Shown piece after piece: positions 21,251 to 28,384 of a stretch of 64,000 nucleotides of DNA (its first letter is position 1; each line of letters starts with the position of its first letter). This DNA comes from Eledone cirrhosa. Lineage: Eukaryota. The stretch lies in the NCBI GenBank assembly GCA_964016885.1, contig OZ024741.1, positions 391,592,001 through 391,656,000 of the forward strand. The letters are read 5' to 3'. The position numbers were made by a program, and so were the translations under genes. A model generated the notes under the pieces. It was not told the origin of the DNA, did not search any database, and worked only from the letters and a program-made list of their open reading frames with translations.

Positions 21251-21367
21251 TTATTCTGATGAAATGACAGTAAATAATAACATTGAAATATTGAATGTCT
21301 GCATAACTAAAAGTTTGTAGATAGCTGTTTTAGGTTATGTAACTGTTATAGAAACACGTGTCAATAA
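21251..21367 (+). ncRNA. Type I hammerhead ribozyme with long stem II
   Basis: TTATT-CTGATGA-A-ATGACAGT...ACTGTTAT-A-GAAAC-ACGT-GTC-AATAA; palindromic stem III ACACGTGT. Confidence 0.8.
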
Positions 21368-22135
21368 ATTCCTTTCAACTAAACTGTATCCATTCAAATC
21401 TTTCTATATATATATATATATATATATATATATATATATATATATATATATATATATATATATATTACAGTGATTGTGAGTAAAATCGAAGTTGCAGCTG
21501 CGAATAGCATCTTTCGAATACAATCCGCCGAAGCTGGCACAAGCACTCAATGAGATGATATCGATAAATCGATATATTATAGCTCAGAGTAATAAACATA
21601 CGTTGAAAGTGTGACAAATTGAAAATTGCAGCCGGGTAAAAAACTGCCACAAAAGCCACCACAACAACGAAAATACAAACAGGTTATATACGAACCTGGA
21701 CCAGAACGATATATATTATAAAATATCTTCGATTCGTTTCTAGGAATCCAAAGTCAACACTCCAACTTGCGCAATATGCAAGTCAGCAATGTATCCTAAG
21801 ATCGAACGTGGATTCCCTTTCTCAATAGGTGTTTCGTTCTGTATACCAATAGCTAGGCATCATGGCACCGCTGTCTTCTAATGCAGTATCAACTATGGTA
21901 GCGGGGTCACGTGTTCTTCTCAAGAAAGGAGGAAGATTCACATCTGGGTTTTATACACACACACACATACATATGAAAAGTTTATACACACACATATGAA
22001 AAGTTAAACAAGGTTCAATGAATAAATCAAAGAATGAGTTTTACATAGATTGGAAGCACTCAACAAAAAAGGTTTTCCAGAGTTATTAATATTAATTCAA
22101 AATATTAACAAAATAGATATTCTTGTGATCAAGTA

Positions 22136-22202
22136 TATTTTATTATATATATTTCAGAGGTACTGAGTTAAGTTCAACAGTACGTCCTCATCAGATAAAA
22201 TA
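22136..22202 (-). ncRNA. Type I hammerhead ribozyme (mirror of 22314-22380)
   Basis: Reverse complement of the plus-strand copy. Confidence 0.85.
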
Positions 22203-22313
22203 AGATGATGCATGACATACCCTGACATAGTAGATGGTTAAGATTCAGTCATTGCAAACTACCATGACTGAATCTTAACCATCTACTATGTCAAGGTATG
22301 TCATGCATCATCT

Positions 22314-22380
22314 TATTTTATCTGATGAGGACGTACTGTTGAACTTAACTCAGTACCTCTGAAATATATATAATAAAATA
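22314..22380 (+). ncRNA. Type I hammerhead ribozyme
   Basis: TATTTTAT-CTGATGA-GGACGTACTG...CAGTACCTCT-GAAA-TATATA-TA-ATAAAATA; 8-bp stem I, AUA cleavage triplet. Confidence 0.87.
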
Positions 22381-22632
22381 TAATTGATCATAAGAATATC
22401 TATTTTGTTAATATTTTGAATTAATATATATATATATATATATATATATATATATATATATATATATATATATATATATATATATATATATATATATATA
22501 TATATATATATATAAATATATATATATATTAGAAAGTGAGGTTCATTTTACAAATTGAAAAATAACCGAGATGAAATCGAAAATGCAACTGGAGTCTTAT
22601 TTTTTTTAAAATATATATATATTTATTTGGTT

Positions 22633-22670
22633 CCTTTACCGGTTTCGCAGTTCTTCTGCTTTTCAAAAGG
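22633..22670 (-). ncRNA. Minimal type I hammerhead, U3-A8 core variant
   Basis: Minus strand: CCTT-TTGAAAA-GCAG-AAGAA-CTGC-GAAA-CCGG-TA-AAGG. Confidence 0.8.
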
Positions 22671-23928
22671 TCAGTTGAGATGGAGGGTCTGTGGTTTTTC
22701 TCACATCTGGTTGGTCTCTGAATGTTACTTGTTTTATATGGAAAAAGTGGCTCGAAATGCCAGGTTTTTCGAGAAGTAATTTGATTGGTTTGTCAATAAT
22801 TATAATAAATTTCGCGCCAGTTCGCGTTACAATAGTTCTTCAAATAAGAGGGGGGTGTCACAGGTTGTTTTTTTCATATATGAGTGTTTGAATTTCTTTT
22901 TACTTGAAAAAAGGGGCTCACGAAGGCTTTTTTTTGGTTGGTTATAAATGAAATTATGGCTGTCACGTGAACAAGTTTTCATTAAATTTTCGTGCCCTTA
23001 TTTGGAAATCCATTCTGTAGCCTTTTTAGAGAATTTTATGATAAGTGAAAGATAATGGTCAAGAGAAAGGGATGGGAGAATTGTTCTGGTTCAGTGAATA
23101 TGGTTAGTTCGCTGGGGTGTCAGAATTCAGATTTTCTATTGAATAAAGAAAGTAAAGATACGTGTTTATTTGTGTGCTTGTGTGTGTGCGTGTGTGCGTG
23201 TCTGTGTGTTGTGTGTGTGTGTGTTTGAATTTCTTTACTTTAAAAAAAGGGTGGCTCACGAAGGCTTTTTTTTAATAAACGTGATTTGATTGGTTATAAA
23301 TGAAATTTGGCTGTCGTAACCAATCAAATCACGTTTATTAAAAAAAAGCCTTCGTGAGCCACCTTTTTTTAAAGTAAAGAAATTCAAACACACACACACA
23401 AGCACACAAATAAACATACATATCTTTACTTTCTTTATTCAATAGAAAATCTGAATTCTGACACCCCAGCGAACTAACCATATTCACTGAACCAGAACAA
23501 TTCTCCCATCCCTTTCTCTTGACCATTATCTTTCACTTATCATAAAATTCTCTAAAAAGGCTACAGAATTGATTTCCAAATAAGGGCACGAAAATTTAAT
23601 GAAAACTTGTTCACGTGACAGCCATAATTTCATTTATAACCAACCCCAAAAAAGCCTTCGTGAGACCCTTTTTTCAAGTAAAAAGAAACGCAAACACTCA
23701 TATATGAAAAAACAACCTGTGACAACCCCCCCCCCCCCCCCCCCCCGCCTCTTATTTGAAGAACTATTGTAACGCGAACTGGCGCGAAATTTATTATAAT
23801 TATTGACAAACCAATCAAATTACTTCTCGAAAAACCTGGCATTTCGAGCCACTTTTTCCATATAAAACAAGTAACATTCAGAGACCAACCAGATGTGAGA
23901 AAAACCACAGACCCTCCATCTCAACTCA

Positions 23929-23966
23929 CCTTTTGAAGAGCAGAAGAACTGCGAAACCGGTAAAGG
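23929..23966 (+). ncRNA. Minimal type I hammerhead, U3/G8 core
   Basis: CCTT-TTGAAGA-GCAG-AAGAA-CTGC-GAAA-CCGG-TA-AAGG. Confidence 0.75.
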
Positions 23967-24190
23967 AACCAAATAAATATATATATTTTTAAAAAGAATA
24001 AGACTCCAGTTGCATTTTCGATTTCATCTCGGTTATTTTTCAATTTGTAAAAAAAACCTCACTTTCTAATATATATATATATTTATATATATATATATAT
24101 ATATATATATATATATATATATATATATATATATATATATATATATATATATATATATATATATATATATATATATATATACATATATAT

Positions 24191-26846: not shown

Positions 26847-27278
26847 TACCCATCTGCCAGATAGTTGAACGTTCGAAAGTATATACTTTCCTTATGAAAA
26901 TTAACGGCTGAGCAGCCTAATTTGCATATTGAGTGAGTTAAATCGGTCAGGCATACAAACGAACAAAGCGACGTTAGCGCCGCTAAACTGATACGTGCAT
27001 ATATGTATGTGTACCTGTATGCATATGTATATATATATGTGCATGCTACTGTACGTCTGTATACATATATGTATGTACGTATACATGCATACTTACATTT
27101 AAGTAAGTGCCATACTAAGAGTGAGAAATGAAATTTCGTTTTCATTTTGTTTCAATTTATCATTTTCGGTATGCCTGACCGATTTAACTCACTCAATATG
27201 CAAATTAGGCTGCTCAGCCGTTAATTTTCATAAGGAAAGTATATACTTTCGAACGTTCAACTATCTGGCAGATGGGTA

Positions 27279-27323
27279 AACGGTGCTGATGATAGCTAAC
27301 AAGCTTGAAACTAGTACATCGTT
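27279..27323 (+). ncRNA. Minimal type I hammerhead ribozyme (inverted unit)
   Basis: AACGGTG-CTGATGA-TAGCTAACAAGCTT-GAAA-CTAG-TA-CATCGTT; 7-bp stem I, GUA triplet. Confidence 0.87.
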
Positions 27324-27657
27324 CCTGTGTCAGTGTTGAACAAAAAGGTGACGTGGTTGCCTTAACACCGTATGGCATAAATTCAGGCTGTTCAGTTTGT
27401 TTACAAACGAACAAAGCGACGTTAGCGCCGCTAAACTGATACGTGCATATATGTATGTGTACCTGTATGCATATGTATATATATATGTATATATATATAT
27501 ATATATGTGCATGCTACTGTACGTCTGTATACATATATGTATGTACGTATACATGCATACTTACATTTAAGTAAGTGCCATACTAAGAGTGAGAAATGAA
27601 ATTTCGTTTTCATTTTGTTTCAATTTATATATATATATATATATATATATACATATA

Positions 27658-27869
27658 TTAGAAAGTGAGGTTTTTTTTACAAAATGAAAAATAACCGAGG
27701 TGTCCTACACGAGTGAAAGTATAAAGAAAAAAAGATGAAATCGAAAATGCAACTGGAGTCTTATATTTTTTTTAAATATATATATTTATTTGGTTCCTTT
27801 ACCGGTTTCGCAGTTCTTCTGCTTTTCAAAAGTAGAGTTGAGATGGAGGGTCTGTGGTTTTTCTCACAC
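27658..27869 (-). mobile_element. Short terminal fragment of the 22529-24069 element family, with U3-A8 hammerhead at 27796-27833
   Basis: Matches 22529-22706 with an extra ~35-bp segment; embedded in (TA)n. Confidence 0.85.
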
Positions 27870-27937
27870 ATATATATATATATATATATATATATATATA
27901 TATATATATATATATATATATATATATATATATATAA

Positions 27938-28010
27938 TTGCCAATTACCTAGTACATTACTGGTACTTTATTTTATCGACCCCGTAAGGATGAAAGGCAA
28001 AGTTAACTTC
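27938..28010 (-). mobile_element. SINE fragment
   Basis: CTGGTACTTTATTTTATCGACCCCGTAAGGATGAAAGGCAAAGT core, shared with 30200-30265. Confidence 0.7.
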
Positions 28011-28250
28011 GATATATCAATAATATTAATAAATGGAAACTATCTTTATAAAACCATATTTATTTTATTATCCAATCCTAATATATATATATATATAAGA
28101 AAGAAATAGGATTTCGCTTCAAGCATAGCTTTATACAATATGTATAAATATTTCGTATCTCCAAAAAAATACAGTTTTAGGAAGCCGTAGCTATGCAAAC
28201 ACCGGGAGGCTAACGCCCTCTGGTGATGTCCAGCAGAAGCAAGTGGGACA

Positions 28251-28294
28251 ACCGTCTATGCATTTCAGGCTTAACTGGTCTTCGTCAGGACGGT
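28251..28294 (-). ncRNA. Minimal type I hammerhead ribozyme
   Basis: Minus strand: ACCGTC-CTGACGA-AGACCAGTTAAGCCT-GAAA-TGCA-TA-GACGGT; weak stem II. Confidence 0.78.
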
Positions 28295-28345
28295 CCCACC
28301 CATTGCACAGTTGAAAATTGCAAACTTGACTGTCACCACAGAATA

Positions 28346-28384
28346 TGAACCTGAAGATTGCGAAAGCATGAAAGTTCTTGTTCA
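28346..28384 (+). ncRNA. Minimal type I hammerhead ribozyme, possibly decayed
   Basis: TGAAC-CTGAAGA-TTGC-GAAA-GCAT-GAAA-GTTC-TT-GTTCA; stem III AGTTCT is one change from the palindrome AGTACT. Confidence 0.68.

Follow-up and report, generated by a model that had tools for sequence, protein, structure and literature searches.

This study concerns a cluster of hammerhead ribozyme motifs in the genome of Eledone cirrhosa, within a 64,000-nucleotide (nt) stretch of contig OZ024741.1 (positions 391,592,001 to 391,656,000; hereafter the window, whose own numbering is used throughout). Eleven motifs lie between positions 21251 and 28384, with a twelfth at 37596. They fall into seven families, here called F1 to F7, which were compared with Penelope-like elements (PLEs), whose pseudo-long terminal repeats (pLTRs) carry such ribozymes, and with non-coding retrozymes. 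From left to right, the cluster reads F1 (+), F2 (-/+), F3 (-/+), a fragment of a long interspersed nuclear element (LINE), F4 (-,-/+), F3 (-) and F5 (-)/F6 (+), with a (TA)n run after each of them. Each inverted pair is minus-then-plus with its 5' ends in the centre and, once inverted pairs and tandems are merged, the eleven motifs come down to six or seven PLE-type insertions. The features are listed below; ORF, RT, EN and UTR stand for open reading frame, reverse transcriptase, endonuclease and untranslated region, and the Hydra and Neptune types are assigned by motif.

18837-20288 (+), within the frame at 18717-20288: F1 PLE ORF, 5'-truncated, with the C-terminal part of the RT, CxCX5C linker and GIY-YIG-like EN with CxxC and CxH
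21251-21367 (+): F1 hammerhead, type I, stem III ACACGTGT, long loop II, predicted cut after C21362
21999-22252 (-): F2 left arm with tail extension
22136-22202 (-): F2 left-arm hammerhead, type I, stem III ATATATAT
22258-22428 (+): F2 right arm, putative 3' end of a Hydra-type PLE with a ~1.9-kb 3' UTR
22314-22380 (+): F2 right-arm hammerhead, type I
22424-22529 (no strand): (TA)n run common, tail-to-tail, to F2 (+) and F3 (-)
22530-23315 (-): F3 left arm, putative 3' UTR of a Neptune-type PLE
22633-22670 (-): F3 left-arm hammerhead, U3-A8 core TTGAAAA, stem III ACCGGT
23317-24068 (+): F3 right arm, with a ~35-nt private deletion common to the left arm
23929-23966 (+): F3 right-arm hammerhead, private core TTGAAGA
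26092-26956 (-): F4 tandem, 1.8 units of 466 nt, two hammerheads
26336-26380 and 26802-26846 (-): F4 hammerheads, stem III ACTAGT
26954-27628 (+): F4 inverted arm, ~1.4 units
27279-27323 (+): F4 inverted-arm hammerhead
27660-27868 (-): F3 solo short copy, starting ~30 nt below the TATA box of the family
27797-27832 (-): F3 solo-copy hammerhead, stem I weakened
28098-28306 (-): F5 partial unit, 323-nt period
28250-28295 (-): F5 hammerhead, stem III ATGCAT
28307-28491 (+): F6 short copy, putative 3' end of a second Neptune-type PLE
28346-28384 (+): F6 hammerhead, stem III AGTTCT in place of the family AGTACT
35461-37756, left edge approximate (+): F7, decayed 5'-truncated Hydra-type PLE
37596-37700 (+): F7 hammerhead (the twelfth), CCGATGA core, stem III ACAATTGT, found by eye

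Sequence and background of the hammerhead motifs

An original prediction, made from the letters of this stretch, had placed the twelve motifs at these positions as type I hammerheads of the minimal PLE kind, with the stem III words given above, in elements inserted at (TA)n. The eleven were recovered by a descriptor scan and the twelfth by eye; their type, stem III words and minimal PLE-type design held, and the 3' ends of the elements lie at TA runs. With a stem I of at least 4 bp, the descriptor for minimal type I hammerheads recovered 10 of the 11 motifs, and with the variants of at least 3 bp it recovered all of them. The descriptor was tuned on this window, so the window count is inflated relative to the background. 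The twelfth motif escaped it, having a CCGATGA core, a 3-bp inner stem I and a long loop II.

Stems I and II are paired and stem III is palindromic, as is characteristic of minimal type I hammerheads. The canonical core C3-U-G-A-N-G8-A9 with GAAA is present in eight of the eleven; the F3 cores are U3-A8 in two copies and U3-G8 in one, and the twelfth motif has C at position 4. A G10.1-C11.1 closing pair is noted as conserved in minimal hammerheads in the account of PMC4209133. Stem II opens with G-C in F3 and with G-C after one A-U in F5 family copies, while that of F1, F4 and F6 opens with A.A or U.U and other pairs next (register ambiguous). Three window copies have private changes that weaken the fold, namely TTGAAGA against the family TTGAAAA at 23929, AGTTCT against AGTACT at 28346, and a stem II of AGACC against AGGCC at 28250-28295, which is consistent with unselected relics.

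In low-complexity DNA as AT-rich as this, such motifs could be matches by chance, and an assembly artefact could also be suspected. None of the 113 Rfam matches at E<=5 is to a hammerhead family, hairpins and (TA)n abound in the region, and no contig among those listed bridges the F5/F6 junction described below. However, between 18.5 and 38.85 kb of the window there were 10 descriptor matches against none in the reversed sequence and none in each of 30 block shuffles. A background sample of 120 stretches of 10 kb, drawn at random from 20 large contigs (1.2 Mb of the 3.0-Gb genome), gave 64 matches, one per 18.75 kb, against 0 in the reversed and 0, 1 and 0 in the shuffled controls, so a hit rate similar to that of shuffled sequence, which would have spoken against the prediction, was not seen. 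When the palindrome requirement was dropped, a perfect palindromic stem III was still present in 37 of 46 matches, and the reversed and complemented controls gave none. Each family searched has between 550 and 2177 candidate copies in the genome, and the arms of the pairs differ by point changes. A chance origin of the motifs is refuted, and we give an origin by chance or artefact practically no credence. The hammerhead motifs are real in sequence, and their cleavage is predicted. The microRNA matches in the Rfam scan were rejected as TA/TG hairpin artefacts, below the gathering score.

If the sample is representative, the 64 matches, which fall into 22 families, extrapolate to ~160,000 intact motifs in the genome. 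This estimate (one per 19 kb) exceeds the counts in the literature consulted, 2,000-9,000 and, for the axolotl with its 28-Gb genome, 126,247. Cervera and de la Pena 2014 (PMC4209133) describe thousands of such motifs per genome in many families, mostly in truncated PLEs, with opposite-strand hammerhead pairs 100-700 bp apart, U3-A8 cores and low activity even as dimers. The minimal PLE hammerheads described there resemble the window motifs in being type I, with a palindromic loop or stem III and an extra nucleotide before stem II.

Coding Penelope-like elements and retrozyme-like units

Judged by sequence, four coding PLE families, F1, F2, F3 and F6, supply seven of the eleven motifs, which are the 3' pLTR ends of 5'-truncated copies. 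The F1 hammerhead is located 3' of the window's own ORF, in which no Pfam PLE-domain match was found; a TATAAAA box is at 21222-21228, and the element ends at (TA)n at 21405. For F2, CxCX5C/EN sequence ends 1.9 kb upstream of the tail in another locus (L291), and the tail lay 3' of the ORF end in all 10 matches taken from the 40 ORF-end matches listed. In locus L293, F3 has a frame of 766 amino acids (aa) with RVT_1 (E 1e-6), GIY-YIG (E 4e-6) and a CX4CXXC linker, ending 1365 nt before the ribozyme, and EN-coding sequence was found upstream of F3 in the same orientation in 9 of 28 loci (two being arms of one locus). GIY-YIG was similarly placed 407-496 nt upstream of F6 in 3 of 29 loci, and an EN upstream of F7 in 7 of 19 other loci. 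The 3' ends of F2, F3, F5, F6 and F7 are fixed and their 5' ends variable. In a near-full F3 element at L296:3711-5462, the RT frame is preceded by an N-terminal frame of ~310 aa that resembles a coiled coil; in this locus the pLTR, hammerhead and TAATATATA (a TA-rich end) are followed by an ATG ~25 nt on.

By motif, F1, F2 and F7 appear to be Hydra-type and F3 and F6 Neptune-type. The Hydra clade is defined by CxCX5C, CxxC and CxH motifs in the description of PMC8557442. The first two are present in F1, F2 and F7 and the third in F1 and F2, the CxH region of F7 being past a stop. The N-terminal DKT/RWK region falls outside these truncated copies, and a related ORF in L297 has LWK. All three families have the pLTR hammerhead and (TA)n insertion. 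The likeness to Hydra-clade PLEs, as they are described there, covers the C-terminal EN, the CxCX5C linker with CxxC and CxH near the end, the pLTR hammerhead, (TA)n insertion, 5' truncation, inverted arm and tail. In contrast to that description, the 3' UTRs here are ~1-1.9 kb long and the stem III palindromes have 8 nt; the long loop II of F1 and F7 and the CCGA core of F7 also differ.

For Neptune-clade PLEs, the same paper describes GxKF, DKG, RT, a zinc-finger linker, C-terminal GIY-YIG and a microsatellite bias, a likeness that extends to F3 and F6. The set of RT, C-terminal GIY-YIG, GxKF, DKG and CX2-5CxxC linker is complete in F3 (L293), and F6 has GxKF, DKG, RT and GIY-YIG, with the linker partial in each of two broken copies. 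F3 differs from the clade description by its U3-A8 core, which has already been reported in Schistosoma PLEs (PMC4209133). The RTs of F3 and F6 are 48% identical over 377 aa; therefore, the prediction of about six unrelated families in the cluster stands for their number and not for all of them being unrelated. In the random sample, 6-nt palindromes with a short stem II accompany Neptune-type tails and tandem units, 8-nt palindromes with a long stem II accompany Hydra-type tails where an ORF link was seen, and several families with 8-nt palindromes share the CCGA core, which has C at position 4.

The remaining four motifs belong to two non-coding tandem units, F4 and F5. The F4 unit of 464-482 nt occurs in arrays, with 35 tandem and 3 inverted motifs in 20 kb in one case and 9 and 8 units in others. 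The F5 tandems are partial (loci L092 and L277), with two same-strand cores in L277. No PLE coding sequence was linked to F4 in 30 loci with Hydra probes or in 19 loci with all coding references, nor to F5 in 29 loci, and with no linked ORF both units fit non-LTR retrozymes. A PLE located 1.7 kb upstream of F5 in L277, of which F5 might have been the tail, was rejected; that PLE has its own hammerhead-like motif and TA end.

Metazoan non-LTR retrozymes, in the descriptions of PMC7229834 and bioRxiv 10.64898/2026.07.22.740005, are likewise non-coding and low in GC, with one type I hammerhead per unit, and occur as monomers, partial tandems and, as F4 does, long arrays. The length of F4 is above the 170-400 nt of PMC7229834 and inside the 51-972 bp of the bioRxiv paper. 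In contrast to these descriptions, F4 and F5 have minimal PLE-type rather than canonical ribozymes, and inverted arms of PLE style at (TA)n. Retrozymes are argued to derive from pLTRs in the bioRxiv paper, which reports cleavage in 1 of 9 tested dimers and, according to its text, sampled no mollusc, and which left the mobilisation mechanism open.

Two side observations concern these units. Upstream of the ribozyme in F4 (window 27198-27246) and of the core in the F5 unit, a ATGCAAAT-type octamer stands ~41-42 nt above a AAAGTATATA box. This arrangement recalls newt satellite 2, which has promoters of the small nuclear RNA type; no precedent for an octamer promoter was found in a literature search. 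A third retrozyme-like family at L263:3417-5196 has a 311-nt tandem unit with stem III ACGCGT, in an inverted array of 3+4 units.

The original prediction had read the motifs as non-coding elements mobilised by PLEs. For F4 and F5 this appears to be true, their closed repeat units having no PLE coding sequence linked. Mobilisation in trans of independent ribozyme elements could also be extended to most of the motifs; many copies of F2, F3 and F6 are ~200 nt long with a common 5' end and could partly derive from short RNAs of solo pLTRs. However, the tails of F2, F3 and F6 (six motifs) are continuous with RT/EN ORFs, and these copies look non-coding because they are 5'-truncated. In addition, one-arm tail extensions match the sequence past the pLTR in the full element of L296, as in internal initiation (PMC11167929). 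We therefore consider it improbable that most of the motifs are such independent elements. A PLE ORF upstream could be linked to F1, F2, F3, F6 and F7, a link to an autonomous PLE having been proposed as a check for every family, but no ORF was linked to F4 or F5. The elements all appear to belong to known kinds, that is, Hydra-type and Neptune-type PLEs and non-LTR retrozymes. Minimal hammerheads in the pLTRs of PLEs, a majority of truncated copies and retrozymes as non-autonomous PLE derivatives have already been described; what is new here is the family catalogue, a genome apparently very rich in hammerheads and, as a further lead, the hybrid retrozyme/PLE junctions described below.

Probable build-up of the cluster at (TA)n

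Very probably, the cluster is a pile-up of six or seven insertions, likely made by PLE enzymes at (TA)n, in which seven PLE-tail motifs are joined by four motifs of retrozyme kind. As predicted, the local density is unusual. The number of distinct families per random 10-kb window was 0 in 83 windows, 1 in 26, 2 in 9 and 3 in 2 (mean 0.42), so that six families in 7.1 kb make this place an outlier against a maximum of 3. The genome-wide expectation for six-family spots is 0.3 under a Poisson model and ~10 under a negative-binomial fit, both rough. Around family copies, to a distance of 1.5 kb, motifs of other families were 1.7-fold enriched (30 in 429 kb; Poisson p 0.005), (TA)4+ was present within 420 nt downstream of 56 of the 64 random matches as compared with 34% of random positions, and the family count rises with the number of TA runs (rho 0.33). 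Given one motif per ~19 kb in this genome, shared targeting would account for the hotspot, and no further mechanism has to be invoked.

The high local count and its sharp edges could instead suggest that insertions land here preferentially, or that the ribozyme cluster is under selection, on account of a position between a LINE array associated with (AGAA)n and a 44-bp satellite. However, up to ~10 such windows are expected if insertions clump, the same stretch also contains a non-PLE LINE fragment, and the three copies with weakened folds look like unselected relics rather than members of a selected cluster. This explanation is therefore very doubtful to us.

The mechanism proposed for the pile-up begins at the pLTR promoter, whose TATA box, ~30 nt above the cluster of 5' ends, would launch a transcript that carries the hammerhead close to its 5' end. 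The 5' ends cluster at this distance in 17 of 29 loci for F6 and 12 of 28 for F2 (top-scoring loci, which are biased), and in the random sample in 5 of 17 alignments at one position for F3 and in 2 of 2 for F6. Within (TA)n, both DNA strands would be cleaved by the GIY-YIG nuclease, and priming by the RT would take place at the end of the pLTR or at the tail immediately beyond it. The products would be ~200-nt copies from the start to the pLTR end, longer 5'-truncated copies and head-to-head pairs. Every insertion would leave TA runs usable by the next, and therefore copies would clump. A tendency of PLEs to insert into or beside existing copies is mentioned in a review (PMC6765202).

In a lizard Poseidon PLE the protein, a predicted dimer, cleaves AT-rich DNA on both strands and extends each of them; reverse transcription starts internally near the pLTR-ORF junction, on uncleaved RNA, and the hammerhead cleaves only when the protein is present (PMC11167929). 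Such behaviour accounts for short copies with intact ribozymes, one-arm tails and head-to-head pairs. For the ribozymes in the window, cleavage is predicted to require dimers that pair through the palindrome of stem III, perhaps assisted by protein. The folding energies modelled for helix III agree with this dependence, at +2.4 to +6 kcal/mol for the monomer and -3.2 to -10.3 for the dimer duplex, except for the mutated 28346 copy (+0.4). Most window copies would be uncut relics; dimers inside a single transcript, with release of a 466-nt monomer, would be possible only for the two F4 units on the same strand. The many different stem III palindromes could keep dimerisation family-specific.

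Several points weigh against the pile-up by PLE enzymes or against its parts. As the expected cluster frequency ranges from 0.3 to ~10 on 120 windows, a local cause may be involved. The local density of TA runs is not extreme, with 20 runs in 8.2 kb (sample median 10.5 and 90th percentile 40 per 10 kb). No descriptor match was found in the 50 kb preceding the window, where homology later revealed a missed F4-subfamily copy and F2 tail pieces, or in four 10-kb samples beyond the window. An autonomous partner with the F4 or F5 pLTR could be present among the candidates beyond the 40 scored of 550 for F4 and of 1518 for F5. The clades rest on motifs, not on a tree, and F3 and F6 could be Nematis. 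Finally, the covariation of F4 is thin. Across 21 distinct F4-family sequences, 97.6% of alignment cells are paired, and at one stem I pair GU, UG and AU all occur. Of the 12 pairs, 1 changes on both sides, a count not above that of shuffles (392/500). The percentage paired and the covariation score exceeded the shuffles (0/500), and the stem covariation, whose absence would have spoken against the prediction, was seen in these two measures and not in the count of covarying pairs. Contigs aligned to F4 had variants at N7, loop II and stem I.

The numbers of own-genome candidates were 550 for F4, 1366 for F2, 1344 for F3, 1518 for F5, 837 for F6 and 2177 for F7, of which 40 each were scored. 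The genome search with the F1 tail was uninformative, missing even the window copy; one F1 copy was present in the random sample.

The F5/F6 junction and the surrounding repeats

F5 reaches 28306, and F6 follows from 28307, its usual 5' start; the two adjoin head-to-head without a spacer, and the TA runs lie on their outer sides. A same-family inverted arm was found at the 5' end in 55 of 133 family loci. In a junction scan of 282 sequences (1.85 Mb, leaving out 39 overlapping or duplicate loci), there were 85 same-family head-to-head junctions, one hybrid, which is F5/F6, and one direct F3-F1 fusion (L238). Two further cases, missed by the scan, were found by eye: an F4-like retrozyme head-to-head with another zinc-finger-linker PLE (L232) and a direct F5-F6 fusion (L147). 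Of 1144 candidates, 40 were scored, and no second copy of the F5/F6 junction was among these 40; nor was a bridging piece present among the matches listed for the contigs aligned to it.

The junction has the geometry of a PLE inverted pair built from two families, which hints at a Neptune-type enzyme copying a retrozyme RNA. We tentatively propose, as a possibility short of an even chance, that it arose in a single insertion: a dimeric PLE enzyme, having cleaved the two strands of (TA)n, would have used a different RNA as template on each, a non-coding retrozyme RNA on one and a Neptune-type PLE RNA on the other. A deletion between two separate insertions could be an alternative source of such a junction. 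The common deletion of the F3 arms, found in 0 of 28 other loci, speaks against a general rule of two templates, and an origin of same-family arms from two different source copies is unsupported for F3. A limited literature search found no report of hybrid retrozyme/PLE pairs, which is weak evidence of absence. If the single insertion is true, hybrid pairs would prove at the genomic level that Neptune-type RTs carry retrozymes along, and would reveal the partner of each retrozyme family. Genome-wide counts of hybrid junctions would bear on which PLE mobilises which retrozyme, and on two-template inverted pairs.

Other repeats surround these insertions. The LINE fragment within the cluster (24193-25778) is a 5'-truncated non-PLE element, abundant in the sample, with (GAT)n at its end and an RT region that includes a PHD-like motif. 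Short repeats without a recognised hammerhead lie between TA runs at 25800-25998 and 27936-28075, the latter being very abundant (332 alignments in the loci compared). An apparent second decayed LINE was seen by eye on the minus strand at 30700-32700. Positions 1-18400 contain minus-strand tandem non-LTR retrotransposons (APE, RVT_1, zf-RVT, zf-CCHC), including a 1218-aa frame at 7951-11607, with long (AGAA)n tracts between them; we take this array to resemble microsatellite-targeting Tx1/L1 elements. On the other side, the 44-bp satellite occupies 38850-64000 in 570 copies and persists ~10 kb and 45-55 kb beyond the window (L305, L306), and a different repeat is found at C2:391.80 Mb (L307).

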